Part shown: positions 4,435 to 20,094 of the stretch, in pieces
Layout of the letters: every line of letters starts with the position of its first letter
Numbering within the stretch: position 1 is the first letter of the stretch
Source of the DNA: an uncultured delta proteobacterium
GTDB lineage: Bacteria; Desulfobacterota; BSN033; UBA1163
Length of the DNA: 64,000 nt
NCBI GenBank assembly: GCA_963827685.1
Contig: CAWHBU010000003.1
Coordinates: forward strand, 128,001 to 192,000
Direction of reading: 5' to 3'
Notes under the pieces: model-generated
The model's input: the letters and a program-made list of their open reading frames with translations, nothing else
Told to the model about the DNA's origin: nothing
Databases searched by the model: none
Program-made: the position numbers and the translations under genes

Positions 4435-4920
4435 ATGATGCCGGAACTTAATCCGAAACATGTGCAAACGGTAATAGACATTATAAACCGGGGACCATAT
4501 TTTAGGCACTTATCCATGCCTGTAAAAGACATAGGCATGGGATATTCGCTTGTTGAGCTTGAGATCGGGAATGAGCATTTAAACCCATTTGGTGGACTTC
4601 ACGGAGGAGTTTATGCTTCAGCGATCGATACAGCCGCCTATTGGGCAGTGTATTGTGAGCTTGATGAAGATGTCGGATTAATATCGCTTGATCTAAAGGT
4701 CGATTATCTTGCTCCGGCTAATGCGGGGAAATTGATTATCAAAGGACGCCGCATCAAAATCGGAAAAACAATTTGTTTGGCAGAAGCTACCGCTTTTGAT
4801 CAAAATGATAAATGGCTTGCTCATGGAATTTCAAAAATGATGGTGACTCAAGGTCTTCAGACAATAAAAGATGCTCTTAATTTCGTAGGGACTGGCTATC
4901 TCCCTCCAAAATTTATTTAA
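4435..4920 (+). CDS. PaaI family thioesterase (hot-dog fold)
   Basis: HLNPFGGLHGGVYASAID, DLKVDYLAP. Confidence 0.9.
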   Translation: MMPELNPKHVQTVIDIINRGPYFRHLSMPVKDIGMGYSLVELEIGNEHLNPFGGLHGGVYASAIDTAAYWAVYCELDEDVGLISLDLKVDYLAPANAGKLIIKGRRIKIGKTICLAEATAFDQNDKWLAHGISKMMVTQGLQTIKDALNFVGTGYLPPKFI

Positions 4921-4923
4921 TTG

Positions 4924-5000
4924 GCCTAACCTATCCTTCAACAAGCACTGGCAAAATCGCTGGCACCGTTTTTGACAGCCTGTTAAGGATGACGTTGAGC
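4924..5000 (+). other. Integron attC recombination site
   Basis: R'' GCCTAAC 4924-30, 5-nt spacer, L'' CTTCAACA with extra C, L' TGTTAAG 4981-87, 6-nt spacer, R' GTT 4994-96; begins 3 nt after PaaI stop. Confidence 0.75.
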
Positions 5001-6799
5001 CTGTAGAAAAAGTCTTAAAAGCATGATAAAATCGCCATATCAGTAGCGGCAAAGAGAGCGGAGACCGCTTAGGAGGGACTGGATGGCGAGATACAAAGAG
5101 TTTGATTATTCACAGGGAAAGTTCATACCGATCCACTTTGACCGACAGATCTTACCCGGGACGTTTGAGTATAGCCTTCATTACCTCATTGACAACGAGA
5201 TAGACCTGTCGATTTTTGATTGCCGGTACCGAAACGACGAGATGGGAGCGCCGGCCTACGATCCCACCATCCTATTAAAGATTATCCTGTATGCCTACTC
5301 ACGAGGAATTACCTCGAGCCGAAAGATAGCGCAGTGTTGTCAAGAGAATGTTATCTTCATGGCACTGTCGGCAGATACGCAGCCGCATTTTACGACGATC
5401 TCAGACTTCATTTCGACCTCGGGCCAGGAGATCATCCATCTGTTTCTAGAGATACTGTTGATCTGCGATGAGATGGGGCTGATCGGGAAAGAGATGTTTG
5501 CGGTGGATGGCTGCAAGCTGCCTTCAAACGCCTCGAAAGAATGGAGCGGGACGAAGAAAGAACTGGAGAAGAAAAGAGAGAAGATGGAGAAGGTGATCAG
5601 GCAGATTGTCAAGCGGCATCGGGAGGTGGATGTTACCGAGGCGGACCGGGGAGTGATGGAGCAAGAAGAGCAGTATGTGGAGACCCTTCGGGGGAAGGTA
5701 AAGAAGATAAAGGCATGGCTACGAGAAAACGAGGACAAACCTGGCAAGAGCGGTAAGCCCGTGAAGAGCAACATCACGGACAATGAGAGCGCCAAGATGA
5801 AGACCTCGCACGGGGTGATCCAGGGTTACGATGGGGTAGCGGTGGTAGACGGAAAGCACCAGGTGGTTGTACATGCGGAGGCATTTGGAGCAGCGCAGGA
5901 ACATGATCTTCTTCTTCCTATGCTCGAGGGGACGAGGGAGAACTTCGAGGCCGTCGGCATTAAACAGGATGTCTTCGAGAAAGCAAAGCTCACAGCGGAC
6001 AGTGGGTTTCATACCGAGGCGAATATGAAGGAGGTCATGGGGCAAGGGATCGATGCCTATATTGCAGACACGCAGTTTCGGAAGCGGGACCCGCGGTTTT
6101 CGGACGTTGACAAATACAAAGAGCAATTCAGAAAGGAGAGGGCTGAGTACTACGGAGTGGCCGACTTATACAGGCCACACAGGGATTTTACGATCAGCGA
6201 AGACAAGACTCATTGCATCTGTCCTGGGGGTAAGCGCCTGTATCGCAATGGGGGGAATGTGGTGGTCAACGGTCAGCGGGCCATCAAGTTTCATGGGAGA
6301 AAGACCGACTGTCGGATCTGCGGACTACGGGAGAGATGCCTGAGACATCCGGACAGAACGGAGGCAAGACAGGTGTACTTCTTTCAGGGGAGTGCGGAGT
6401 CGAAGCCGGAGACGTTTACCCAGAAGATGAAGCGCAAAATAGATTCGATAAAAGGCAGACTCATCTACAACAGGAGACTCGGAACGGCAGAACCTGTATT
6501 TGGGAATATTTGCTCTACCTTAGGGTTGAACCGATTTACCCTTCGAGGGAAACGAAAAGTGAACACCCAGTGGTTACTCTACTGTGCGGTGCACAATCTA
6601 TTTAAAGTGCATCGATACGGTCTGGAGCTTGCGTGAACGGAGCCGGATTGGGTGATAGGGTATTGGGGTAAGAAAAATATCATGAAAAGACGAACATTTC
6701 GCCAAGAATCGGAAAAACTTTTGATGACAGAAAATAATTTCCTATTTTTGATCCAGCAGAAGAAGCGGTTTTTAAAAAACCGACTTTTTCTACAGGCTC
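4997..6799 (+). mobile_element. IS1182-family insertion sequence
   Basis: Perfect 18-bp TIRs GAGCCTGTAGAAAAAGTC (4997-5014) / GACTTTTTCTACAGGCTC (6782-6799); flanking GTT direct repeat. Confidence 0.92.
5083..6636 (+). CDS. IS1182-family DDE transposase
   Basis: GAPAYDP..LLKIILYAY, PHFTTISDF, AVDG, ADSGF, AEPVFGNI motifs. Confidence 0.92.
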   Translation: MARYKEFDYSQGKFIPIHFDRQILPGTFEYSLHYLIDNEIDLSIFDCRYRNDEMGAPAYDPTILLKIILYAYSRGITSSRKIAQCCQENVIFMALSADTQPHFTTISDFISTSGQEIIHLFLEILLICDEMGLIGKEMFAVDGCKLPSNASKEWSGTKKELEKKREKMEKVIRQIVKRHREVDVTEADRGVMEQEEQYVETLRGKVKKIKAWLRENEDKPGKSGKPVKSNITDNESAKMKTSHGVIQGYDGVAVVDGKHQVVVHAEAFGAAQEHDLLLPMLEGTRENFEAVGIKQDVFEKAKLTADSGFHTEANMKEVMGQGIDAYIADTQFRKRDPRFSDVDKYKEQFRKERAEYYGVADLYRPHRDFTISEDKTHCICPGGKRLYRNGGNVVVNGQRAIKFHGRKTDCRICGLRERCLRHPDRTEARQVYFFQGSAESKPETFTQKMKRKIDSIKGRLIYNRRLGTAEPVFGNICSTLGLNRFTLRGKRKVNTQWLLYCAVHNLFKVHRYGLELA

Positions 6800-6890
6800 G
6801 TTATCCTCTCCCCCAATCTAAAATCAACAGCTCTTAACGTAGATTGATCTCCAAACTTTGTAGCTGGAAGAGGCAGCCCCCTTTTTTAAT
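6800..6890 (+). repeat. Dispersed repeat A, copy 1 (starts at attC G|TT)
   Basis: Aligns with 9023-9110 (AATCAACAGCTCTTAAnGTAGATTGATCTCCAAACTT...GGAAGAGGnAGCCCC). Confidence 0.8.
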
Positions 6891-6905
6891 TCTTTATATA
6901 GAGAC

Positions 6906-7013
6906 TTATGTTGACACAACAATCCGAGAGGTGTATTCTGTAAACCAGATAGTGCTCGAACACGGGGAGGCACTGAAAAAACATTAGACAAATTCACGAC
7001 TCCTGAAGATGTG
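6906..7013 (+). promoter_or_regulatory. Repeat B copy 1: sigma70-type promoter plus conserved ~75-nt leader
   Basis: TTGACA(6911)-N17-TATTCT(6934); homologous to 8441-8550. Confidence 0.65.
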
Positions 7014-7111
7014 ACCCTGTTGCATCTCCTGTTGCATTCCCTAATAGTCCCCAGGGAGGTCAAGAAAGGTGAAGGTGCTATTTCTTAGTTTCACGAAGAC
7101 AAGGCGGGTTG

Positions 7112-7561
7112 TTAGAGATTGAGCAATTGGAAAAAAGTCCCCCAATTAATAAATTGATGTTTTACCGACAAATCTTTTTCCCTTATTTTCATCAGGCCCA
7201 TACGGTTCATGCCAAAGCCTGACTTTATATTTTTTAAGTCATCGCGAGAGACGAGGAATCCTAATGGGTGGTTCTTGCTTTCAGACTGTGTCAGAAGAAT
7301 GACAGCCCAATCCATATTTTCCGGGGAAATAAAATGAGAAATTTCTTGCCAAGGTGAAGGCATTTCGAAAAACTCTTTGCCGTGTTTCGCATGAATGAAT
7401 AAGAAATGGGTTTTACTTTTAATGTAAAAACGGTAAAGCTGTGCATGTCTTCTTATTAATTTTAGATCGAACTTAACCCTCTTTTGTCCTAAGGCAGTTC
7501 TTAAGTTCGATAAAAATTCATTAGCTAATTCTTTAGAGGCTTCTGCTGGCACTTCTTTCAT
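7112..7561 (-). CDS. Hypothetical protein
   Basis: 149-aa ORF downstream of csp; no recognised motif. Confidence 0.6.
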   Translation of the reverse strand: MKEVPAEASKELANEFLSNLRTALGQKRVKFDLKLIRRHAQLYRFYIKSKTHFLFIHAKHGKEFFEMPSPWQEISHFISPENMDWAVILLTQSESKNHPLGFLVSRDDLKNIKSGFGMNRMGLMKIREKDLSVKHQFINWGTFFQLLNL

Positions 7562-7727
7562 CCCATCCTAATACCCGGGTTGATCTATAGGTACCTTTGA
7601 GAGCTACCGCTATTCCGTCAATTCATTTATCAACAGAATAAACAACCGGAATTTTCCTTTAAGCCCGTCTGCTGATACAGGGAGGTTCTGTTGAAAGATG
7701 GAAAACGGATGCCAAAATTTTGTAAAG

Positions 7728-7761
7728 AAAGAGAAGCCAACTCATCCGCTGGCTTCCCTTT
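7728..7761 (-). terminator. Intrinsic terminator after csp
   Basis: Minus-strand hairpin GAAGCCA..TGGCTTC followed by T-rich run. Confidence 0.55.
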
Positions 7762-7767
7762 GAGGGC

Positions 7768-7968
7768 TCAAACTATTTTTACATCAGTGGCATTAGGGCC
7801 TTTGGGGCCTTGGGTGGTTTCGAATTCAACCTCGTCACCCTCCTTCAGGGATTTGAACCCCTCCCCCGTGATTGCCGAGTGGTGAACAAACACATCTTTA
7901 GCTCCTTCCACTTCGATAAATCCAAAGCCCTTCTGATCGTTGAACCACTTTACTCGTCCTCTTGACAT
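7768..7968 (-). CDS. cspA: Cold-shock protein
   Basis: [15 protein letters not shown] (RNP1), DVFVHHSAI (RNP2); GGAGG RBS. Confidence 0.95.
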
Positions 7969-7998
7969 AATAACCTCCATTTGAACTTAAGTTGAAAT

Positions 7999-8145
7999 AA
8001 AAAACCCGCCAAAGAGGGAAACTCACTCTTTGCGGGCTTCCTTTTTTTCGAAGCCCGCTTTGCCCAAAGAGCTTTTGCTCCTTGGTCTCTTATCATTCCC
8101 GCCTCAAAGGTTTTACCCTTTTTGGCTCTACTGATAAGATTGCGG
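7999..8145 (-). promoter_or_regulatory. Structured csp 5' leader with terminator/antiterminator pair
   Basis: Stem 8005-16/8026-36 plus U6; competing stem 8032-40/8050-58; helix 8088-95/8132-39. Confidence 0.55.
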
Positions 8146-8175
8146 GTTTAGAAAAACCTCTATTGTCTTACTTAT

Positions 8176-8204
8176 TTTATAACACAAGAAAGGGATTTTG
8201 GCAA
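8176..8204 (-). promoter_or_regulatory. Sigma70-type promoter for csp
   Basis: Minus strand TTGCCA-N17-TATAAA. Confidence 0.55.
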
Positions 8205-8440
8205 TGAGATGAGATGGATAAAATTCTTTTAAATAATATTCATTGGAGTTCGCGTCAATCCAGACCTTCCTGAACAAAGGGACTGTCTATGTGGTCGAGC
8301 CAACACCCCCCCATTCCGTGGAGCAATATAGTGATCCATCCTTTAATTGAATTTTGAAGGTTTTTACCCTAGCCGCTTTCTATCCCTGGTTTTCGGGTCT
8401 CTTTTCAAGACCTTCTTTCAAGCTTCGGAAACATGCAAAC

Positions 8441-8550
8441 TTATGTTTGACATAGAAATCTGAGAGGTGTATTCTGTGAATCAGGAAATACCCGAACACG
8501 GGGAGACACCGAAAAAACATCGGACAAATTCATGCCATCTGAAGATGTGT
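8441..8550 (+). promoter_or_regulatory. Repeat B copy 2: promoter plus leader upstream of 8601 gene
   Basis: TTGACA(8447)-N17-TATTCT(8470); homologous to 6906-7013. Confidence 0.65.
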
Positions 8551-8600
8551 GAACATCTAAGATTTGATCCCACTTTTTTTGGAAAAATGGAGGCTTAGGC

Positions 8601-8966
8601 ATGGTAAGACGATTTAGTGATGAACCGATTCTCCCAATGCGTGCTCTTCAAATATGGCAAATTTTGATAAGTGCTGCACGCAATCGACAAATTCTAACCT
8701 ACGGTATTCTGGCGAGCATGCTTGGATATGAACGTGCGGGCGTCCTCGCACAACCCCTTGGACACATAATGTACTATTGTCAACAAAATGAACTGCCACC
8801 ACTAACTATCTTAGTTGTTAACCAGGATACGGGGGTTCCAGGCGAAGGATTAACAGGTGCCGATCTTAATGCGGACAGAGAGTCTGTATTTCGTTACGAT
8901 TGGTACTCGATAATTCCCCCCACTCCAGAGGAATTCCGCGAAGCATACACGCGCGGGCAACAGTAG
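8601..8966 (+). CDS. Hypothetical protein, probable winged-helix, cassette-like
   Basis: LTYG.LA..LG, LPPLTILVVN..TG.PG.G pattern; GGAGG RBS; followed by degenerate attC. Confidence 0.75.
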   Translation: MVRRFSDEPILPMRALQIWQILISAARNRQILTYGILASMLGYERAGVLAQPLGHIMYYCQQNELPPLTILVVNQDTGVPGEGLTGADLNADRESVFRYDWYSIIPPTPEEFREAYTRGQQ

Positions 8967-9029
8967 GCCCAACAGGCGGCCGCACAAGGATCGATCTTAA
9001 ACTGTGGCCTCTGATGCGGGCCGGTATCC
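8967..9029 (+). other. Degenerate attC-like site
   Basis: R'' GCCCAAC directly after stop; imperfect stem; R' position reads GGTATCC. Confidence 0.35.
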
Positions 9030-9110
9030 TGACTTCCAATCCACAATCAACAGCTCTTAAGGTAGATTGATCTCCAAACTTAGAGGTGGAAGAGGTAGCC
9101 CCTTTTTTAA
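9023..9110 (+). repeat. Dispersed repeat A, copy 2
   Basis: Aligns with 6800-6890. Confidence 0.8.
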
Positions 9111-9275
9111 CTCTCTCCCCGTACTAAATGGTTTACAGATTTTCTAAAAAGGAGTATATTCCAATCAGTAATCCACAGGGTGGGGACGAAAACATTCTTT
9201 CATTTTCAGAAATGAAAAATAATAATCAGTGCTTGGTCAACTTTCAATAAAGGTTTATTTCGCCGGGAAAAAGCC

Positions 9276-9374
9276 TGGGGTCAGACTTAAATATTGACAT
9301 TTAAGGACAGAACGAAAATTTATCTTCTTTTTAAAAAGAGCAAGAAAAGATCTCAATAATTAAGTCTGACCCCA
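9276..9374. repeat. Inverted-repeat element (REP/MITE-like)
   Basis: Perfect 15-bp IR TGGGGTCAGACTTAA / TTAAGTCTGACCCCA around AT-rich core. Confidence 0.7.
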
Positions 9375-9475
9375 AAGACATGTCCCAATTGGTAATCATC
9401 GACGGCTTTTCATATCTTGACTCACATTATCTATCCATATTATCATATGGTGGGTTTGAGAAATTCATACATTTT

Positions 9476-10978
9476 ATGAAACTTAAGTCGTCCTCTCTGC
9501 AGATAAATACACTGTTTCCAATTGGGAGATCATTATATGGTGATCTTAACAACAATCTCGAAAAAGAAACATCTATATCTATCGGCCAACAAGAAGGTTT
9601 ATCCCAAATAGATGTTCTTGATAACAAATTGAAACAGCACTTCCATAGGAAAATCAAAATTCAGCCGGAATTGTCACGCCAGATAGTAAGCTTTCAGGCA
9701 AACAAACCCAGACGCTCATACCGCTGGTATAAATATAAGGAAGCTTTTTCTGCAGCACTCGTCGAATATTTATTTTTTAAATACGGAATTCAATCAGGGA
9801 AAGCACTTGACCCCTTTGCAGGAAGCGGAACGGCTTTGTTTGCAGCGAGTGATATGGAAATTGATGTCGATGGGATTGAATTACTTCCTGTTGGACAACA
9901 GATTATTTTTGCAAGGGAGTGCTTGGAAAAAGAATTTACTCAGGCCGATCTTGACTCTTTTAAGCATTGGGCGAAGGAGCGTCCTTGGCATGCATCAAAG
10001 GTAAAAATACCCCTTTCTAAATTGCCTATCACAGAGGGGGCCTATCCGAAAAAAACACTTGATTCAATTGAGCGATACATCGGAGCCTGGCAGAGAGAAA
10101 ACAACAAAGTCCAGTCCGTTGTACGCTTCGCTTTGTTGTGTGTACTTGAGCAAGTCAGTTTTACACGTAAAGATGGGCAGTATCTTCGGTGGGATTATCG
10201 TTCAGGCCGCCGGCAGGGTGCGAAGCCTTTCGATAAAGGGGAGATACTCAATTTCGATAAAGCAATATGCGAAAAAATAAATGAAATTTACCGCGATTTA
10301 GAGGCTGGGAAGGGGTCTGGAGAATTATTTGTTCCCAAAGGCATAAAAGGGAATATTCACCTTTTTTGTGGTTCATGTCTTGATATTATGCCGACTCTGC
10401 AGAGGAATTCATACGACGCCGTTGTGACATCTCCACCTTACTGTAATCGTTATGATTATACAAGAACATATGCGTTAGAGTTAGCATTGCTTGGGATAGG
10501 AGAAGAGGGGATCAGCAGGCTTAGACAGGAAATGTTAAGCTGCACAGTGGAAAATAGGGCAAAAGATTTATTGAAAATGAATCCGAAATGGATAAATGCC
10601 ATCGCTGCCGCAGAAAATCAGGAATTGTTGCAGGCAATTTTACGATATCTCGAAGAAGAAAAAGATAAAGGCCAGCTAAACAATAACGGCATTCCAAGAA
10701 TGGTAAGGGGCTATTTCTATGAAATGGCATGCGTTATTAGTGAAATGGCCCGCGTTTTAAAACCCAATGCCCTATCATTCATGGTCAATGACAATGTGCG
10801 TTATGCTGGCGCCAGCATTTCGGTTGATATGATCCTCTGCAACATTGCAGAAAAACTGGGATTCCATGTAGAAAACATTCTTGTTTTGCCAAACGGGAAA
10901 GGAAACAGCAGTCAGCAAATGGGAAAACATGGCCGTGATCCATTAAGAAAGTGTGTCTATGTCTGGAGAAAGCTATAA
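9476..10978 (+). CDS. Amino-DNA methyltransferase (probable m4C; M.AvaI/M.BsoBI-like); start uncertain
   Basis: LDPFAGSGT (SAM binding), TSPPY catalytic motif, GNSSQQMG C-terminus; adjacent to REase. Confidence 0.88.
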
Positions 10979-10983
10979 GGTTT

Positions 10984-11934
10984 ATGAAGAAACCGTATCG
11001 CAAACATCTATCCGGCTACACCGATCTGCTAACGACTTATGAAGAAGTTAGAGCCGGTTTTGTCGCCTTAGCATTAGAAAAAAACCGTAGGGCCACTCCG
11101 TTTGTCGAACAAGCAAGATCTCTTAAAACAGCTGCGAGTCAAGCCAAGAATCCTGCCGATCTTCTTAATATTCAGAGCATACAGCTTGCTTTATTGACGG
11201 CCTCAGGAGTGTCAGACAAAGCAATGAAATATCTGGAGTCTAATGACAAATTAGAAGCAATCCAAAAATTGATTGAAAAATACCTCGAACCCGCTGGATC
11301 AGCCTTTGTCGAAGAATTAGTATTTAGATTTCTTTTGACAAGAGGAGATACTTTGGGAGGTTCAATGCGAAATGTCGGTGGAGTTTTAGGTGAGCGTAAA
11401 TTGGCACGAGCAACACTTGCCAACCTTGCACTTGCAGGAATTGCTTATCAATGGCTTCATGCTGACAGCGAAGAATGGATCGTTGGAAAAAGAGATGACG
11501 CTGATGTTGAGCTCTATCTAAATGGGCTTAGTTGGTCAGGCAAAGGCAAAAACCGTACAATGATTTACAACCGCAGGGTTCCATTCATTGGGAAAAATAT
11601 TGATTTGTGCCTTCTCAATTGCTCCCCTGAAGGGTTCGACACTGCCTTTAATAGTCCTTCTCATTACATTGCTCTTGGAGAACTCAAAGGGGGTATTGAT
11701 CCTGCCGGAGCTGATGAACATTGGAAAACGGCAAGGACTTCTTTAACCCGAATACGCAAGGCATTTTCTAAAGAAAAAGCTTCACCACATCTATTTTTCG
11801 TTGGCGCAGCCATCGAACACAGCATGGCCGGAGAAATATGGGGTCAATTAAAAGATGGAACCTTAAGCAATGCCGCCAATCTGACCAACGGAGATCAAGT
11901 AGCTTCTTTATGTGGATGGTTGTGTAGTCTGTAA
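10984..11934 (+). CDS. Type II restriction endonuclease, AvaI/BsoBI family (probably CYCGRG)
   Basis: RFLLTRGDTLGGSMRN and ELKGGIDPAGADEHWKTA signatures. Confidence 0.88.
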   Translation: MKKPYRKHLSGYTDLLTTYEEVRAGFVALALEKNRRATPFVEQARSLKTAASQAKNPADLLNIQSIQLALLTASGVSDKAMKYLESNDKLEAIQKLIEKYLEPAGSAFVEELVFRFLLTRGDTLGGSMRNVGGVLGERKLARATLANLALAGIAYQWLHADSEEWIVGKRDDADVELYLNGLSWSGKGKNRTMIYNRRVPFIGKNIDLCLLNCSPEGFDTAFNSPSHYIALGELKGGIDPAGADEHWKTARTSLTRIRKAFSKEKASPHLFFVGAAIEHSMAGEIWGQLKDGTLSNAANLTNGDQVASLCGWLCSL

Positions 11935-12077
11935 CCTAGAACAGAAATTTTAAATGTAGATGTTAAATTCCGTGATCTTTTAATGGGTGTTTCTTTAAAA
12001 GGGTAATCTATACGAGGGTATTCAAGAATGGCACAAATTCACCCTGAACGACGCGTGCGGCATCTGCAAACTCAGAA

Positions 12078-12419
12078 CATCGCGTATTAACAAAATTAAT
12101 AAACAAAATAAAAGGAAATGGGGTCAATAATACTCAGATAATGTCAATGCTCAGTGGATATTTTGAAGATATGTTCTTAGTATTTAAAGAGATCTATAGA
12201 TGCCTTCGCAACGGAGGAAAAGTTGCAGTAGTTGTCAGCAATGTTAGGTTTTCTGGCGTTAATGTGCCTGTGGATGAAATCCTTTTCGAAATCGGAGAGC
12301 AAGCCGGATTATATGCTCGTTATATCTGGGTTGCAAGGTATAGGGGAAATAGTTCTCAACAAATGAAGACCTATTCTCGCGAACCATCCAGAGAAAGCAT
12401 TGTTTTTTGGAATAAGTAA
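12078..12419 (+). pseudogene. C-terminal remnant of a second AvaI-type DNA methyltransferase
   Basis: GYFEDM, VSNVRFSG, RGNSSQQMK paralogous to C-terminus of 9476 MTase; frame open upstream of 12141 but SAM-binding and SPPY motifs absent. Confidence 0.75.
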
Positions 12420-13188
12420 AAATGACAAAGAAAAAAATAGTTTATTTATTTGGCGCTGGTGCTACTCAGGCCGTTATCAAGGAAATTGACCCTGAAAAGA
12501 GCTTAATGACTGAGGACATACGGGAGTTAATAGGATCGAAATACTCTAAAAAAGGGATTGACCCAGCGATTTGGAATGAGCTAGTTACAAAGGAAACTGA
12601 TATTGAACACCTAATATCCGTCCTTGAATCTCATTATAATTATTCAACTTCCGATAAAATAAGAAAATATTATTGGCAAGCCGTGGTAAGGTTAATCAAA
12701 GACCTATCAAAATCACCTCCGGCGAATCTATACACTGTTTTATATGATCTTCATAAAAATGTAGAAAGTCTGGAAGAGGAGTTAATTTGCTTCATAACAC
12801 TGAATTATGAAGATCTTCTGGAACAATCTCTAAAAAAACATCTAAAATTTGATATAGACTATGCAATTGATACTGCGAGCAATAGGAGCAAAAAAAATAA
12901 GGCGAGAATATTGAAATTACATGGTTCTTTCAATTGGATTAATACCAGACCAATTCAGATAAAAAGTATGACAGCAATTCAACATAAGAAAACATTATGG
13001 ATACCGCCGGGGGTCGAGAAGCGAAAGGACAATTATCCTTTTAACTTGCTATGGGGTGAAGCGCTAGAATGTTTGATGGAATGCGATATTGTAAGACTAA
13101 TAGTGGAGTGCACCCCTGAAACTGGACAAAATGTGTTAGAGTGGTGACAGGATCTTAGCCCCCTGAATGGGGGAGAAAGGATCTTGTC

Positions 13189-13536
13189 ATGAGAAACCAA
13201 CGGCGCTTTTCTCCAGAACTTAAACGTTCTATCGTCGAAGAGCTTTTGAGCCAAACCTCCTCTCCTGCCCAGATCTGTCGACGCCATAATATCTCCTCCG
13301 GCCTCCTCTATCATTGGAAAAGACAATATGCCCGAGGGAAATTCGGCAATGAACCGACCAAGGAAGCAGCCCTGGCCGATCGCGTCGAACAGCTGGAACG
13401 ACTGGTCGGCCAGTTGACCCTGGAAAAAGAGTTCTTAAAAAAAGCCTTGAAACATACCCTCGAAAAAGCCGACAGAAGAGAGAATTCCTTCTCCATCACC
13501 TCCATAAAGGAATCCAAGGGGGGTGTCAGCTCATGA
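13189..13536 (+). CDS. IS3 transposase OrfA (HTH)
   Basis: RRFSPELKRSIV..ICRRHNIS..LLYHWK, LEKEFLKKA. Confidence 0.9.
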   Translation: MRNQRRFSPELKRSIVEELLSQTSSPAQICRRHNISSGLLYHWKRQYARGKFGNEPTKEAALADRVEQLERLVGQLTLEKEFLKKALKHTLEKADRRENSFSITSIKESKGGVSS

Positions 13537-14357
13537 ATCTTCCGAGGAGTAGCTTCTATTATCCGCCGAGAGAGAAAACGCCCTCTCAACAAGAACAGGA
13601 GAAGACTCTCGAGGGACGGATTGAAGCCCTCTGTTTGGAATTCCCTCGCTATGGCTATCGAAGGGTAACGGCTCAGTTGCATCGTGAAGGTCTTCTCATC
13701 AACCACAAGAAAGTCCTTAAGATCATGAAAGCCAATGATTTAGTCTGCCGCCCGCACAGGAAATGGGTCAGAACGACCCAGAGCGATCATGGCTACCCCC
13801 TCTATCCCAATCTTCTGAAGGATCGTCCTATTACGGCCATCAATCAGGCTTGGGTTGCCGATATTACCTATATCCGTATTACTTCGTGCTTTGTCTATCT
13901 GTCTGTTCTGTTGGATCTCTTCTCTCGAAAGGCTATCGGCTATGCGGTGTCTCAAAGTCTTCATGCCTCATTGACTCTTCAAGCCTTAGGGATGGCTTTG
14001 TCTCAAAGGGACCCTCCCCGAGGCTGCATCCACCACTCTGACCAAGGGGTTCAGTATGCCTCTTGGGAGTATGTTCAAAGGTTGAAGAATCACCATTTTC
14101 AAATCAGCATGGCTCGTAGAGGAAACCCCTATGATAATGCCTTTGCTGAGAGCTTTATTAAGACCCTCAAGAGTGAGGAAATCGATCTTTGGGAGTATCG
14201 GACTCTTGAGGACGTTCACCAACGACTTCCCTTTTTTATTGAAGAAGTGTATAACAAGAAACGATTGCACTCTGCACTGGGATATTTACCCCCAGATGAA
14301 TTTGAAGCCATGGTCATAAAGACTAATAACTTTCTACACCCCTGTCTATCACTCTAA
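13533..14357 (+). CDS. IS3 transposase OrfB (rve DDE)
   Basis: YGYRRVT, WVADITY, HHSDQGVQY, DNAFAESF, YN..RLHSALGY; ATGA overlap with orfA. Confidence 0.92.
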   Translation: MNLPRSSFYYPPREKTPSQQEQEKTLEGRIEALCLEFPRYGYRRVTAQLHREGLLINHKKVLKIMKANDLVCRPHRKWVRTTQSDHGYPLYPNLLKDRPITAINQAWVADITYIRITSCFVYLSVLLDLFSRKAIGYAVSQSLHASLTLQALGMALSQRDPPRGCIHHSDQGVQYASWEYVQRLKNHHFQISMARRGNPYDNAFAESFIKTLKSEEIDLWEYRTLEDVHQRLPFFIEEVYNKKRLHSALGYLPPDEFEAMVIKTNNFLHPCLSL

Positions 14358-14786
14358 GTTTGATTGTCCAATCCCAGGGGTTCAGTCCATAGGTTGCTCA
14401 CTGAGTCAAAATGACTGGGGACTGATCCCAATACTCTATACGGCGCAACGATTTAATAATAAAGGTCAAAACATAAAAATCGAAATAATAGACTTTATGA
14501 AAGCGGGGGAAAATATTAAGAAGAATTACCGATATCTTGATGTGAAACAAATCAACGAGATCGAGGAAATCATTGCATACTATAGACGTCAATTACCAGA
14601 TTCATCAGACGAAGAGCGTAATAAGGAGATGATTACCCAATTTTCTGACAAGGACAAAATGAATCCATTCAAGATATGGCTTGATGCAAAAATAGACCAA
14701 ATAGTTAAAGAAGACAATGATAAAGGAACAGACAGCATAAAGACAGCAAACTTTGTTCGTAATTTTTATTACAAGGAACCCAGCCT

Positions 14787-15908
14787 ATGAATAAAACAAA
14801 TATTAAGTGGACGATTAAAAGCCTTCTAGAAAAATATGATGCTATCGAGTTCCCTGAATACCAACGAGAACCTTCAGTTTGGAATCTAGATAAAAAGCAA
14901 AAGCTTATAGATTCAATACTACGAAAATTTGATATTGCTACCATTTACCTGTACAAGCGCGATGATGGCAACTACGAATGTATTGATGGGCGGCAGAGAA
15001 TCAATGCAATTATATCTTTTCTTGGTTTAAATGAACAAACTGATTCTGCCGGAGACGGTAGCAGTTCTGACAATAATTTCAAATTTATGAGCTCAGATGA
15101 GCTCCTTGGTTCAAGAGATTTGGAAGCTTTTAACAACAAAAGATGGGGTGATCTTAATGCCAAGCAACAAAAGGATTTTCTGGATTATGAATTCAATGTA
15201 CTCGAAGTAACGGATATTGATAAGGATGCTGAGCTTAACTTGATGTTTTTGAGATTGCAACTGGGAGCATCCCTCAACGCAGGGGAAAAGCTAAACGCAA
15301 TGGTTGGGGATATGAGAGATTTAATTTTTAAAGAATCTACGACCCCACCACCTTTAGGGCAACATCCATATCTTGACTATTTAGAAATCCAACAAAGAAG
15401 ATTCTCCAGAGAACTAACCGCTGCCCAAATAACTATGAATTTCTTTTCGCTTAAGAAAACAGGTGAGTTCAAAAGAGCAAGATTTAAAGATTTACAGGAA
15501 TTCTTCAAGGAAAATCTAAAATTTGGCCAGGAGGAGAAAGGGATGACATCATTATTAAGAGCAAGATTAGATGCGATTCACAAGACCTTACCGAAGGCAC
15601 CTAAGGTGAGACTAAAGAATCGCGCTATTGGTGTAAGCACTTTTTTCTTTGTAAATGAAATGATCGAACGTAAGCAGGATGGTGACATACTCACGTTTTT
15701 AAAATTTCTTCAGTTATTTTTAAAGAGACTAAAAGAGCAGGTGGAAAAAGGGATAGATATTGACCGACAATATAAAGATCTTCTAAAGTTTCAGACCTAT
15801 ATATCTCAAGCAGCCGTTGAAAAATATGCTATAGAAAGCCGCCAAAAATTCTTAAGAGAGTACTTTGATCATTATTTAAAACACAACAAAAAGATTAAAG
15901 GTGATTAA
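14787..15908 (+). CDS. DUF262 (ParB/Srx-like, GmrS-type) domain protein
   Basis: FPEYQRE..VW, IDSIL, IDGRQRINAI, MFLRLQ.G..LN. Confidence 0.85.
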   Translation: MNKTNIKWTIKSLLEKYDAIEFPEYQREPSVWNLDKKQKLIDSILRKFDIATIYLYKRDDGNYECIDGRQRINAIISFLGLNEQTDSAGDGSSSDNNFKFMSSDELLGSRDLEAFNNKRWGDLNAKQQKDFLDYEFNVLEVTDIDKDAELNLMFLRLQLGASLNAGEKLNAMVGDMRDLIFKESTTPPPLGQHPYLDYLEIQQRRFSRELTAAQITMNFFSLKKTGEFKRARFKDLQEFFKENLKFGQEEKGMTSLLRARLDAIHKTLPKAPKVRLKNRAIGVSTFFFVNEMIERKQDGDILTFLKFLQLFLKRLKEQVEKGIDIDRQYKDLLKFQTYISQAAVEKYAIESRQKFLREYFDHYLKHNKKIKGD

Positions 15909-15951
15909 CTCCGTTCGATTTGGAAGCTCATAGGAAGAAAAGAAGGGTCCG

Positions 15952-16071
15952 CCTGCTCGGGAAAAGTCGATGAATCCTCGTTTTACATCAGTCGCGATGA
16001 GCTGAACGCGAACTCGATTCTCATTTGCCTTGACAAAGCATCAAGACTACATTGACAAGAGCCAGCCCATC
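15952..16071 (-). repeat. Direct repeat C copy 1, includes RNB-ribonuclease-like 3' end
   Basis: Homologous to 18240-18514; minus strand reads RVRVQLIATDVKRGFIDFSR. Confidence 0.75.
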
Positions 16072-16158
16072 GATAAAGAGAGATGGGGACGTTCGTGCAA
16101 AGAGGAATAATTTCCTGTCACTTGTAATGGGGTAGAACAGGAAGTATCGAACACGCGG

Positions 16159-17079
16159 CTATACGCCAAGGTAGTCCCGGAGTTTTCGCAGTGCCTCCCG
16201 GTGTTTCCCCTTGGTCATTCGGCCTATATTTAGAAGCTTCCATTGAACGGCAGGAAGATTCTCGATTCCGGGCACGCCCAACAAATTCCACTGGGGTTTT
16301 CCCTCTTTAACAGATACGATAAACTGCCTTTCGTCCCGGGTCATTTCCTTGCGAAGCTTGGATACCAATTGCTCTCCTATAGTCCTCAGCTCCTCTGGCG
16401 TGACCGGTTCGACCACCATCCCCTGAAATTCTCTCTCGAAGACCGGGCGCAGATCACCCCATTGTGGATTGAGGATTTCGACCATCGGTCGGGAGTGACT
16501 GACAAGGTAGACAAGAAAGGCCTTGCGTACTTTCTCCGGAAACCCCTCATTCTTGAACAGCATATCGATGTCGAAAAGATCTCTCGGATGCTGCCGGTCC
16601 AGAGCTGCACAGGCCTTCCCTCCATAAAGATCCTCGAATGAAAGGGTGCGGGCTTCGATCGAAAGCTCAAAGAAATCCTGTGCCCTCTGACAGAGGGTTC
16701 TCGTTTCTGTTGGAAATACCGATCCTCTCAGGACAGGGTTCGGTTCTATTTTGACCGCTGCATCGTCACGGCGGAATAGCAAACCGGCTAAAATATCCAG
16801 GTCATGATCTTTCTTGGGAAACACGCGAACGCCGGCAATTTTTTTCTCAACCTTTTCGGAGATTCGAAGAAGGGCTTTGTCGATGTCATTTAAAGCAGTC
16901 TCACGGTCGTTAACCGGAAGATAGGTCAGGTCAATATCGACGGAAAGACGGGGAAGATCCCTTAAGAAGAAGTTGATCGCGGTCCCTCCCTTCAAGGCAA
17001 AGATTTCCTCTTCGTTTACAAAGGGCAAAACCCGAAGGAGCAATTCTGCCTGCCTGAAAAAGACCGTGTCTTTTTTCAA
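16159..17079 (-). CDS. abiEii: Type IV TA toxin, AbiEii-family nucleotidyltransferase
   Basis: FALKGGTAIN, PRLSVDIDL, GGK..AALDRQHPRDLFD. Confidence 0.9.
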   Translation of the reverse strand: MKKDTVFFRQAELLLRVLPFVNEEEIFALKGGTAINFFLRDLPRLSVDIDLTYLPVNDRETALNDIDKALLRISEKVEKKIAGVRVFPKKDHDLDILAGLLFRRDDAAVKIEPNPVLRGSVFPTETRTLCQRAQDFFELSIEARTLSFEDLYGGKACAALDRQHPRDLFDIDMLFKNEGFPEKVRKAFLVYLVSHSRPMVEILNPQWGDLRPVFEREFQGMVVEPVTPEELRTIGEQLVSKLRKEMTRDERQFIVSVKEGKPQWNLLGVPGIENLPAVQWKLLNIGRMTKGKHREALRKLRDYLGV

Positions 17080-17855
17080 ACTGTTCCTTCTCTCCTTACC
17101 CTGGGGACCGTGATTTGATACTTGGGATCGAGTTCTCCCCCGGATACGATCCTCCGCTTCCCTCTGCCGAAATCTATCCGTGAAAGATTAAGCTTTTCCA
17201 CCCAGGGATGCCTATGTTTTTCGGCCATGTACATGAAAAGCCTTTTAACTTTGATAAAGCGGCATATTTCGAGAAGCTTTTGAACGATCTCGGGCCTGAG
17301 CGTAACAAGGCTCTCCATGATGAGAAGCGACTCCTCGAAGCTTACCTTCTCCGGAACGAGGTAAAGCATCTCCATGGCCGCCCGCTCCGGCGAGGATATC
17401 CGAATGGAGAACTCCCTCTCCTTCCATTCGGAGAATCCGTCACGGTTGTTTTCAGGGAAAAGGCTCGTCCGGGTCACAACAAGGCGAAGACTAAGTCGTT
17501 CTCCTGAGAACCAGGCGGGTAGGACGATCCCAGGCTGAGCGTAAAGAAAGAGGGTTCTTGTCTCCTCAGGAACGTAGTGACCGTAACCCTTGAGTTCAAG
17601 GGCCGTCTTCCCTCCTGCGTGAACTTCAAGCTCAAGCTGGGATTGAACCGCGTATAAGGCTCCGGGCCACTCGACCCGATCTTCAGGGAGGATGTAGGCC
17701 CCTTGGCCAAAAGATTTAATCCAGCCGCTACGGCGATATTTCGTCAGGAGATCGTAAGTAAACCCTTGCCGTTTCAGGTAAGAAGCCGTTGCAACGGTTC
17801 CCCTGGACCACTTACGGATGAGCTGGTTTATTTTTGTTGTTTTTTCATTACCCAT
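17076..17855 (-). CDS. abiEi: Type IV TA antitoxin, AbiEi family
   Basis: Y.RSGW....G.GAY, HAGGKTALELKG, SSPERAAME, IKVKRLFMY; overlaps toxin start. Confidence 0.88.
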   Translation of the reverse strand: MGNEKTTKINQLIRKWSRGTVATASYLKRQGFTYDLLTKYRRSGWIKSFGQGAYILPEDRVEWPGALYAVQSQLELEVHAGGKTALELKGYGHYVPEETRTLFLYAQPGIVLPAWFSGERLSLRLVVTRTSLFPENNRDGFSEWKEREFSIRISSPERAAMEMLYLVPEKVSFEESLLIMESLVTLRPEIVQKLLEICRFIKVKRLFMYMAEKHRHPWVEKLNLSRIDFGRGKRRIVSGGELDPKYQITVPRVRREGTV

Positions 17856-18239
17856 GGTACTTAAATAACAATAATCTTAAACCAAAGTCAAGTGGGAAGT
17901 TTAAAAAAGTCGGAATTTCATTACTGGAAGGCAAGAAATAACCGTTTTCTTAAACCGTAACAAAGGGCTTCCGATCCAGAGCAATTGTTGTGCGTCATTT
18001 CCGGGGAAGCACAACTCGGTACGAGTCGGTGCGGTACGACCGAGTCGACTCCGACTCGATTCCGACAGGGGAGTATACTCGTCAACGAAGGGGACATAGG
18101 TTCTAAAACAACTTGACACCGTTGGCCCTTTTTAAAGAAGCGTTAAATGTGGGAAATACCTTAATCAGGACAAATACAAATAATCCGCTTCATCTCTTTC
18201 CCTGCCGGGACGGGCGAATATCAATCCCCCTGTCTTCAT

Positions 18240-18514
18240 CCTGCTTGGGCGAAGTCGATGAATGCTCGTTCTACATCAGTCCTTATTAATACAAACGCAA
18301 TAAGCAGATTGTCATTACGAAGAGTTAGGCGATGAAGTAATCTCATCAAAAACGAGATTGCCACGCTTGCGCGCCGGAGCGCTTCAGCGCGCAGGCACGC
18401 CCTTTGGGCTCGCAATGACAAGTTATTCAAAGCGTTTGTATCAGCTCAACGCGAACTCGATTCTCATTTGTCTTGCCAAAGTATCAAGATTAGATTGACA
18501 AGAGCCAGCCCATC
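18240..18514 (-). repeat. Direct repeat C copy 2, interrupted by MITE
   Basis: Minus strand RVRVEL/IRTDVERAFIDFAQAG*; homologous to 15952-16071. Confidence 0.75.
18289..18441. mobile_element. MITE (TIR ATACAAACGC) enclosing GTCATT...AATGAC palindrome
   Basis: Absent from repeat C copy 1; same TIR family at 21116-21302 and 25563-25682. Confidence 0.75.
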
Positions 18515-18523
18515 AACTATTCT
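18495..18523 (+). promoter_or_regulatory. Sigma70-type promoter for 18550 gene
   Basis: TTGACA-N17-TATTCT. Confidence 0.55.
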
Positions 18524-18549
18524 TTTTTCAGAGGAAAGGAGAGCGAGCC

Positions 18550-20094
18550 ATGATTAAAACAGTTGAACAGTATCTTGAAAGCTTGAACGACGGTAGGCAA
18601 ATCTGGTGTCTGGGGGAAAAGGTATCCGATGTTCGTACCCACCCTACCCTCAGCAGCATCATCAAAACCGCCTGCATGGACTATGTCCTGCCCAACCATC
18701 CCGGTTTCCGGAACTTGTTCGTAACGAAGAACGAGGACGGAGAGGATATTAATTTCCTGCTCACCTCCCCCAAAACGCCGGAAGATCTCTTGAGAAGAAG
18801 AGAATGCTACATCAACGGCGTCAGATCCGGTGGAGGGGTGATGGTTCATTGCATGGGCGCTGATGCGCTCGCCGCCTTTACGGTTGCGGCCGGGGTCATG
18901 GATAAGGAAATCGGGACCCATTATACGGAGCGGGTGGAGAATTATCGGAAGCTGCTTCAAAAGCAGGACCTGGCCATTACCGGAGCCATTACGGATGTAA
19001 AAGGAGACAGGAGCCTGCATCCTTCGAAACAGAAACAGCACAAGGACTATTATCTGAGAATCGTGGATAAACCGAAAGACGGGATCGTGGTGAGAGGAGC
19101 CAAGGTGCATATCAGCGCTACCCCCTGTGCCAATGAAGCCCTCTGCCTGCCCTGCCGGACCCATGGTGAGGAAGATAAGGATTATGCCCTGGGCTTTGCC
19201 ATCCCGCTCAATGCACCCGGGATTAAACTTATCGCCGTGGAGCCCGTGTCACGCACCTACGGGGAAGAAGGCGAATTTGATTATCCCAAGACGAGTGTCA
19301 CCCAGCCTACAGAGTGTCTGATTGTTTTCGACGATGTGTTTGTGCCGTGGGAGCGGGTGTTCATGTGCAGGGAGTGGCAGTTCAGCCGCCATCTGGCTTA
19401 TGCCTTTGCCAGTTATCACCGTCTTTTCGGCACCTGTAAAATGGTCGGAAAGCTCGAAATCATCACCGGGGCGGCCGCCTTGATCGCCGAGTATAACGGG
19501 GTTGAGAACGTCGGTCATGTCCGGAAAAAGCTGGCCTGGATGGCCATGATCACTGAAACGGTGACCCAGTTGGGAAAGGCGGCCTGCCTCGATCCTACAA
19601 AGGAATTCGGGAGCGACGTCGTGATGCCCAACCGGATGGCCATTAATGCCTCCAAGTACACCTTTGCCAGTAATTTTCACCAGATGTGCCAGCACTTACA
19701 GGATATTGCCGGAGGGCTATCAGCAACGGTCCCGACGTTCCGGGATTGGAACAATGCCGAGATCCAGCCCTACATTGAAAAATATCTGGGAGCAAAGGAT
19801 GGGGTTCCGACGGAAGATCGACTTCGGGTGATGCGGCTTTGCAAGGACATGACCTGCAATTTTTACCAGATCGACACCATTCACGGAGAGGGGTCCATGG
19901 CTGCTCAGGAGATGTTCTTATACGGCAGCGCCGACTGGAAAAAACTTAAATCGGCGGCAAAACGGGCCGCCCATGTAGATGGCTGGCAGGATGATCCCAC
20001 CTATGGAAAACTTTTACATCCGAAAGAGCAGGTGAAAATGCCTGCCGTGGATGAATCGTATCAAAGCATACCCAAAACGGCCAAGAGAAAGTAA
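18550..20094 (+). CDS. 4-hydroxybutyryl-CoA dehydratase / HpaB family flavoprotein
   Basis: EQYLESL.DGR, ITDVKGDRS, VVRGAKVH, VFDDVFVPWERVF, HGEGS..AQ. Confidence 0.85.
   Translation: MIKTVEQYLESLNDGRQIWCLGEKVSDVRTHPTLSSIIKTACMDYVLPNHPGFRNLFVTKNEDGEDINFLLTSPKTPEDLLRRRECYINGVRSGGGVMVHCMGADALAAFTVAAGVMDKEIGTHYTERVENYRKLLQKQDLAITGAITDVKGDRSLHPSKQKQHKDYYLRIVDKPKDGIVVRGAKVHISATPCANEALCLPCRTHGEEDKDYALGFAIPLNAPGIKLIAVEPVSRTYGEEGEFDYPKTSVTQPTECLIVFDDVFVPWERVFMCREWQFSRHLAYAFASYHRLFGTCKMVGKLEIITGAAALIAEYNGVENVGHVRKKLAWMAMITETVTQLGKAACLDPTKEFGSDVVMPNRMAINASKYTFASNFHQMCQHLQDIAGGLSATVPTFRDWNNAEIQPYIEKYLGAKDGVPTEDRLRVMRLCKDMTCNFYQIDTIHGEGSMAAQEMFLYGSADWKKLKSAAKRAAHVDGWQDDPTYGKLLHPKEQVKMPAVDESYQSIPKTAKRK

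Follow-up and report, generated by a model that had tools for sequence, protein, structure and literature searches.

In the SIR2-HerA system of Staphylococcus aureus, an Asn/His dyad of SIR2 is catalytic, SIR2 alone is silent and binding of HerA activates it (PMC11514289). Stand-alone DUF262 proteins are known in Menshen, Dazbog and PD-T4-2 (PMC10952713), and the two domains of the Menshen protein NsnA are described as a sensor that binds nucleoside triphosphates (NTPs) and a DNA-binding domain (PMC12065111). Here, we describe a SIR2 gene coupled to a nuclease-less DUF262 gene in a 64,000-nucleotide (nt) stretch of DNA from an uncultured delta proteobacterium (assembly GCA_963827685.1, contig CAWHBU010000003.1, positions 128,001 to 192,000), hereafter called the window. 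The results showed that the pair belongs to a three-gene cassette of many uncultured bacteria and archaea, consisting of a DNA methyltransferase (MTase), SIR2 and DUF262. The copy in the window is dead and was broken twice, by truncation of its MTase gene and by an IS3-family insertion sequence (IS) that splits SIR2.

Split SIR2 gene and its DUF262 partner

The IS within SIR2 encodes OrfA and OrfB (Pfam domains HTH_Tnp_1, HTH_21 and rve), ends in imperfect 40-nt inverted repeats (13104-13143 and 14350-14389) and has TAG on both sides (13101-13103 and 14390-14392; Table 1). Excision of the IS and one TAG gave a 1080-nt frame of 359 amino acids (aa) with no internal stop, in which GAGA, TLNYE, KLHGS and IGCSL stand at residues 11, 126, 165 and 227, respectively. 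The stop of this frame shares ATGA (14787-14790) with the start of a 373-aa DUF262 protein that carries PEYQR at residue 23 and DGRQR at residue 67. In intact relatives, both window halves of SIR2 align back to back within a single open reading frame (ORF). The 3′ half matched the family profile with 99.6% probability, and 37 of 38 conserved family columns are retained in the 5′ part and 13 of 13 in the 3′ part. In runs X3 and X4, contigs with about 95% similarity to the window lack precisely 13099-14389 and with it the IS. Taken together, the relatives, their intact SIR2 ORFs, the profile match and the IS-free contigs demonstrate that the join of the two halves is not due to chance. Because a contig of run X1, which may be the window's source sample, spans the left IS junction, the insertion is real DNA. 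As contigs of X1 span both the IS and the junction at 12073 described below, an assembly artefact is excluded for either. A second copy of the IS, on contig C5, is 99.92% identical to the window copy, indicating that the insertion is recent. The first-pass annotation of this DNA, which had proposed an IS3 element splitting one 359-aa SIR2 frame with these four motifs and an ATGA overlap with DUF262, was borne out in each of these respects. The DUF262 frame of the window is open; its near-invariant Pro202 (Pro in 110 of 113 relatives) is replaced by Gln, which may be a weak sign of relaxed selection.

Of 3375 candidates searched with DUF262, 735 were related to it at E ≤ 0.001. Alignment A1 (114 homologues) was built from the best 120 of these (47-85% identity) after removal of six short ones, and a set of 136 loci was based on it (56 species-genome loci and 80 of 165 metagenome matches). 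SIR2 was found immediately upstream of DUF262 in 116 loci and within 3 kb in two further loci, in which IS1595 separates the two genes. It was absent in four loci, of which three matched DUF262 weakly or partially; in 14, the upstream DNA was too short. With a SIR2 profile search, the pair was recognised in 125 of the 136 loci. Among the genome loci, 50 contain the pair; they carry 14 bacterial and three archaeal phylum labels, one further archaeon being unlabelled. SIR2 is a single intact ORF of 339-386 aa in 92 loci, and the commonest SIR2/DUF262 junction is the 4-nt overlap seen in the window (24/92). For a reverse search, the SIR2 profile was compared with 68 genomes from the class of the host and with 401 from a Dehalococcoidia sample. 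Eight strong SIR2 matches were obtained outside the window, at least two and probably four of them already among the loci; DUF262 lies downstream in seven and the eighth is cut by IS3. Six weak matches (E above 1e-14, Dehalococcoidia sample) were rejected as other families without DUF262, one of them being SIR2-HerA. In trees that left out five near-duplicate loci and three loci with a broken DUF262, the distances of SIR2 and DUF262 were correlated with a rho of 0.89 (n = 84), a value that reflects linkage and not physical contact, since kin share history. SIR2 and DUF262 are neighbours in other genomes as well, forming a coupled, conserved and co-diverging pair.

Among 72,556 plasmids, SIR2 had no match and DUF262 matched ten records, nine of them partial at 29-40% identity and none covering 80%. 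SIR2 also had no match among 50,697 phages, and an IMG/VR scan with a single DUF262 protein gave no confirmed case among six stretches. A search for fusions among longer proteins gave eight matches in 7861 candidates, none with a SIR2 or MTase Pfam domain, which is weak evidence. Inactivated copies, broken by an IS or a frameshift, are frequent (the window, L047, L051, G357 and G026), and seven loci have split frames.

Alignment of 86 of the 92 intact SIR2 proteins (A2; six near-duplicates or proteins with doubtful starts excluded) showed that GxG, Asn128, Tyr129 and His167-Gly-Ser are invariant in 86/86. The model of the intact SIR2 of locus L062 had a predicted local distance difference test score (pLDDT) of 92. 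Its closest structures were the SIR2 of SIR2-HerA (8sub, 8wld and 8w9l; E ~1e-8, template modelling (TM) score 0.45-0.55), then ThsA, KomBC and DSR2, ahead of a deacylase. In the DUF262 model (pLDDT 86.5, predicted TM score 0.59), the N-terminal half is ParB-like and the C-terminal half is all helical, and the closest structures were BrxU, SspE and ParB proteins with middling scores (BrxU: Z 8.0, root mean square deviation 11 over 301 residues). QRxxxW and DGRQR are invariant in DUF262, and the helical half contains invariant Arg residues at 205, 232 and 352 and no conserved His. These Arg residues would suit DNA binding. A complex prediction for the DUF262 and SIR2 of L062 (alignments A3 and A2), run without control complexes, scored 0.00 and points in neither direction. 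The fold ranking and the invariant Asn and His are in line with the earlier assignment of SIR2 to the NADase type of defence proteins (enzymes that consume nicotinamide adenine dinucleotide, NAD+), and Pfam and the fold comparison likewise agree with a DUF262 protein lacking a nuclease.

A linked cytosine methyltransferase

When the neighbouring genes were clustered, a single additional large family emerged, with members in 78 loci. It consists of DNA MTases about 410 aa long, in which motif I lies close to the N-terminus and SPPY farther along the protein. SPPY, a motif that marks N4-cytosine (m4C) enzymes, is present in all full-length cassette MTases and absent from the window remnant. Of the 125 pair loci, the 80 that have 1.5 kb or more of upstream DNA were used to count the distance of the MTase, and the other 45 were excluded. 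The MTase lies within 600 nt in 71/80 loci and within 3 kb in 77/80, these 77 comprising 68 alpha-class SPPY, eight beta-class SPPY and one C5 enzyme, and it remains adjacent in nine loci where it is inverted or downstream. The proposal of a two-gene system in the first-pass annotation has to be revised in view of this third member, and repair of SIR2 and DUF262 alone would omit the cassette's MTase.

MTases of three alpha subfamilies, only 24-32% alike to each other, and of a beta family unrelated to them occur at scattered positions in the DUF262 tree. The tree distances of the pair proteins and the MTase gave rho values of 0.46 and 0.52 (n = 58), a loose agreement between the MTase tree and those of the pair. 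Loci L033, with a beta MTase, and L030, with an alpha MTase, are 87% identical in DUF262 and 84% in SIR2. Because close relatives carry unrelated MTases, the methyl mark appears to matter more than the MTase protein. Among 97 genes on the flanks of 57 alpha-class cassettes, no type II restriction endonuclease Pfam family was found. One of these genes encodes a type III Res subunit and many are housekeeping genes, between which the cassette is often inserted alone. Beta-class MTases are accompanied by a nuclease, which is XhoI-like in five loci, DpnII/BanI-like in four and of another unnamed family in two. A PDB sequence search with a cassette MTase gave three weak, motif-only matches.

The intact cassette very probably serves defence of some kind. 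Its patchy spread over many phyla, its frequent inactivation by IS or frameshift and its frequent position alone between housekeeping genes would also suit a selfish or regulatory unit that is not mainly antiphage. In such a unit, the MTase would be an antidote and the pair would kill cells that lose it (addiction), or DUF262 would be a DndB-like operon regulator and SIR2 a deacylase or ADP-ribosyltransferase. This is the least probable of the explanations considered here, as SIR2-HerA, ThsA, KomC and DSR2 are closer to SIR2 in fold than deacylases are and the unit was not found on the 72,556 plasmids or 50,697 phages; moreover, addiction and defence are not exclusive.

In the window, the remnant of the class A MTase ends with a stop 2 nt before the SIR2 start, has lost both catalytic motifs and covers only positions 389-480 of the 481-position PADLOC profile. 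The breakpoint lies near 12073. An X3 contig matches the window from 12073 on and has 765 other bases before this point, and an X4 contig matches the block of the upstream BsoBI-like restriction-modification (RM) pair up to 12073 and then diverges. The location of SIR2-DUF262 between an RM system and AbiE, as first annotated, was confirmed by Pfam and PADLOC, which identified the BsoBI-like pair and AbiEi/AbiEii. The RM methylase has a class B motif (NRYDY), and class B MTases without a nuclease occur in five intact cassettes; on the evidence of this motif, it is a possible substitute partner for the lost class A enzyme. BsoBI-like RM pairs also flank SIR2-DUF262 in L047, L102 and L133, and the upstream RM pair is probably linked with the cassette rather than a mere neighbour. 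G026 (locus L155:4580-9376) contains an alpha MTase, an XcyI-like nuclease, an MTase remnant, a SIR2 without its HGS segment and DUF262, and reached the broken layout of the window independently; lexA lies just upstream of this locus.

Table 1. Features at and around the cassette copy in the window
Feature	Position	Strand	Supporting evidence
Alpha-class SPPY (N4-cytosine type) MTase of BsoBI-like RM pair	9380..10978	+	Pfam N6_N4_Mtase; PADLOC MTase_II PDLC03224, E 1.7e-158
BsoBI-family type II restriction endonuclease	10951..11934	+	Pfam Endonuc-BsobI, E 3.6e-148
3′ remnant (~110 codons) of the cassette's class A MTase	12074..12419	+	72% identity to L062 MTase residues 296-404
SIR2 gene, 5′ part (227 codons; GAGA, TLNYE, KLHGS)	12422..13103	+	Pfam SIR2_2, E 1.5e-6; PADLOC SIR2
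IS3-family insertion sequence	13104..14389	+	40-nt terminal inverted repeats; 3-bp TAG target duplication
SIR2 gene, 3′ part (remaining Rossmann fold and helical C-terminal extension)	14393..14790	+	Family-profile match
DUF262 (GmrSD_N, ParB-like NTPase) with all-helical ParBDB-like domain, nuclease-less	14787..15908	+	Pfam GmrSD_N, E 1.3e-17
AbiEii/AbiEi toxin-antitoxin pair	16159..17855	-	Pfam, PADLOC

AbiE was ruled out as a part of the cassette, as no neighbour family other than the MTase occurs in more than about a tenth of the loci. Direct repeats of 42 and 75 nt (88-91% alike) at 15952-16071 and 18240-18514 bracket the AbiE pair, and contigs C6 and C8 carry additional copies of them; the AbiE genes may form a mobile cassette of their own. 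The RM pair is preceded by a DUF772/DDE transposase gene (5083-6636, +), a cold-shock protein gene (7771-7971, -) and two small ORFs with no Pfam or PADLOC match (7112-7561, -, 149 aa; 8601-8966, +, 121 aa). The intergenic repeats there (6799-7013, 8447-8549, 9022-9081 and 9276-9374) include direct-repeat families of 103 and 60 nt, a 99-nt element with 25-nt inverted ends precedes the RM methylase, and 9001-9400 has 23 blastn matches within the genome. An Rfam scan of 4800-19000 gave no match.

Several other genes were seen beside the cassette or its parts. Type III mod/res genes enclose or adjoin the three-gene cassette in L005:210-8225, L064, L062:1846-10793 and L060, so that a second RM system surrounds it there. 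An unnamed family of 285-310 aa without a Pfam match, whose Atlas neighbours are DpnII/BanI-like nucleases, is paired with beta SPPY MTases (L106:8526-9383, L107:5881-6765, L109:6700-7626 and L135:7696-8619). In G222 (L158:6552-8049), genes for a C5 MTase, an HNH protein and an HhH-GPD glycosylase adjoin the pair, and in L150:2-3413 a SIR2-HerA pair stands directly behind a DNA MTase gene. There is a second DUF262 gene at L034:1799-2746, a divergently oriented SRA-HNH gene next to the pair of an archaeon (L045:4126-4893), a SIR2-STAND-TPR (Avs5-like) gene immediately upstream of the pair (L135:1007-4711) and a STAND-TPR gene near it (L054:3-2303). A three-gene unit encoding proteins of ~350-390 aa and 470-520 aa and a 440-aa superfamily 1 (SF1) helicase recurs beside the pair (L027:437-4343, L106:4454-8381 and L107:6860-10763). 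It had no PADLOC match, its first two genes had no Pfam match, and it is a possible unnamed defence system.

Proposed self-marking by methylation and alternative explanations

We favour, with a probability of about 0.45, the explanation that the cassette is an RM-like self-marking defence that kills by NAD+ depletion instead of DNA cleavage. The MTase would place m4C on host sites as a self mark. DUF262 would use its helical domain and its QRxxxW groove to bind DNA, and its NTPase would be switched by DNA without the mark, such as that of an incoming phage or plasmid. In the manner of HerA in the SIR2-HerA system, the switched DUF262 would then turn on a SIR2 that is silent by itself, with the result that NAD+ falls and the infected cell arrests. 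Self-marking would explain why an otherwise orphan MTase stays with the pair, why unrelated MTases replace one another and why copies that lost the MTase are found inactivated. In the window, a deletion or recombination at ~12073 may have removed most of the MTase and introduced the BsoBI-like RM pair; the marking may since have passed to the methylase of that pair. The recent IS3 split SIR2. A fuller version is put forward more tentatively: the cassette may be an RM system with a non-nuclease restriction half, in which a ParB-type switch reads missing m4C and turns on a SIR2 NADase to give abortive infection, the pair being pluggable onto unrelated MTases and the window and G026 representing a swap in progress.

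The named restriction endonucleases beside the pair are of the BsoBI (window, L047, L102 and L133), XhoI (five loci), XcyI (G026) and BsaWI (L042) families, which lean mostly to families with CG-core hexamer sites. XhoI recognizes CTCGAG and XcyI CCCGGG. The sites of BsoBI and BsaWI are CYCGRG and WCCGGW, respectively (PMC4652773). Avoidance of such sites was assessed by synonymous shuffling, in which homologous positions are not independent. CYCGRG was observed 92 times in the SIR2 and DUF262 genes versus ~132 expected, 424 times in the flanks versus ~477 and, with no depletion, 89 times in the MTase genes versus ~73; CTCGAG was observed 43 times versus ~47.

Several points weigh against self-marking. 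These counts gave no clear site. Exchange of MTases without a matching change in DUF262 requires all partners to cover one site; the XhoI and XcyI sites do not overlap, and four loci have a DpnII/BanI-like nuclease instead. Two of the 80 loci have no MTase (L027, with ~5 and 6 kb of flank, and L123, which is short), and in one locus the MTase is 5.1 kb away. The distant members L042 and G222 adjoin C5 MTases, a poor fit to an m4C-specific reader, and SIR2 is broken in L007 and G357 though the MTase is intact. About 52 of the 97 flanking genes have no Pfam match, so unrecognised nucleases are possible among them. The loci include near-duplicates and kin, so that the counts overstate independence, and the MTase-adjacency counts stand without a background rate for defence genes beside MTases. 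Furthermore, the characterised DUF262 sensors respond to a modification and not to its absence (PMC10952713, 10.1101/2022.08.27.505566, PMC13251355).

In the model of the first-pass annotation, DUF262 senses phage DNA or nucleotides and triggers NAD+ depletion. Applied to the three-gene cassette, DUF262 would sense phage DNA modification, as in GmrSD, BrxU and Dazbog, or a fall of the nucleotide pool, as HerA, and trigger SIR2, the MTase being a fellow traveller or only masking host sites. BrxU is the best structural match of DUF262, Dazbog, an abortive system of two genes with DUF262, is set off by a cytosine methylase of the phage (10.1101/2022.08.27.505566), S. aureus SIR2-HerA is repressed by ATP (PMC11514289) and L027 carries no MTase. 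The model nevertheless leaves unexplained an MTase within 600 nt in 71/80 loci, kept through inversions and family swaps. The linked MTase favours sensing of the host mark or its absence instead, and we regard the model as improbable.

Sensing of the host mark itself is somewhat less doubtful, though still unlikely. DUF262 would bind the methylated host sites, as SspE binds phosphorothioate, and fire when this state is disturbed, for example by a phage that inhibits the MTase or the RM system, imitates DNA or breaks down the DNA of the host, the pair serving as a second line like PrrC and PARIS. For SspE, the activating signal is the mark of the host (PMC13251355; see also PMC12707154 for an SspE-like mode). 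The pair takes unrelated MTases and adjoins complete RM systems in ~17 loci; in L005 it sits inside a type III system, with mod on one side and res on the other, and in L062 it is close to such genes. NAD+ depletion suits a last-resort response. However, in most loci (68/80, alpha-class) the MTase has no recognisable nuclease to guard.

If self-marking by the cassette is true, it would join methylation-based self marking with NAD+-depleting abortive infection, two branches of immunity that are usually apart. It would also provide a small, testable system for how DUF262 proteins without a nuclease, which Menshen, Dazbog and PD-T4-2 have as well, recognise DNA and transmit the signal, and would account for one class of apparently orphan MTases in uncultured bacteria and archaea. 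The cassette is rare and was unseen in the plasmid and phage collections, which may be why screens with laboratory strains missed it. The dead copy in the window is of value as evidence of partner exchange.

Comparison with known systems

A search of PADLOC-DB 2.0 gave only generic SIR2, NsnA and MTase_II matches and no named system. The unit was not described in the papers found, although subscription papers, supplements and current DefenseFinder models could contain it; such supplements include the Menshen neighbours of PMC12065111 and the candidate lists of 10.1101/2024.01.29.577857. The main text of PMC4619093 does not mention SIR2. The MTase-linked SIR2-DUF262 cassette is apparently undescribed, in keeping with the earlier remark that the pairing was not recognised as a named system. 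Membership in Menshen, Dazbog, PD-T4-2, GmrSD/BrxU/SspE or SIR2-HerA was rejected on gene content.

The cassette shares a stand-alone DUF262 protein with Menshen (NsnABC), Dazbog and PD-T4-2. NsnA was the best PADLOC match of the window DUF262 (E 6e-20, residues 8-364) and also that of two distant homologues, and it has the same two-domain plan (PMC12065111). In contrast to Menshen, the cassette has no NsnB ATPase or NsnC nuclease; neither matched in the neighbours scanned, no conserved gene lies downstream of DUF262, and the main text on Menshen mentions no SIR2, sirtuin or NADase (PMC12065111). Only the N-terminal 60 residues of DUF262 match PD-T4-2_A, and no Dazbog model of PADLOC was matched. 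The cognate second genes DzbB and PD-T4-2_B were not found, the partner of DUF262 matching only SIR2 models of PADLOC. No feature of Thoeris, DSR or SPARSA/pAgo (TIR partner, SLOG, long DSR sensor region, Argonaute/APAZ) was found in SIR2 or the recurring neighbours.

With the type IV enzymes GmrSD and BrxU, the cassette shares a DUF262 with QRxxxW and DGxQR, BrxU being the best fold match. It differs in having no nuclease domain, and type IV enzymes have no cognate MTase. No HNH or DUF1524 was found by Pfam in the DUF262 protein, and no HNH neighbour recurs in the loci. The cassette MTases match the PADLOC model of the BsoBI-linked methylase (PDLC03224), as in type II RM, but a restriction nuclease is usually not recognisable and SIR2 and DUF262 stand in its place.

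SspABCD-SspE and DndBCDE-DndI resemble the cassette in coupling DUF262 and a helical middle domain to a host DNA-marking enzyme. In the cassette, however, the predicted mark is cytosine methylation, HNH/DUF1524 is lacking and the effector is a separate SIR2; the neighbours scanned contained no ssp or dnd match for phosphorothioate writers, the recurring partner being the MTase. SIR2-HerA (Nezha) has, like the cassette, a stand-alone SIR2 of ~350-400 aa with the Asn/His dyad and an NTPase gene directly downstream. In the cassette, a ParB-like DUF262 takes the place of the HerA ATPase, the recurring neighbours in the 136 loci include no HerA family, and the MTase is part of the cassette. By analogy with these two systems, the cassette may be seen as a cross between SspE-type mark reading and SIR2-HerA-type killing.

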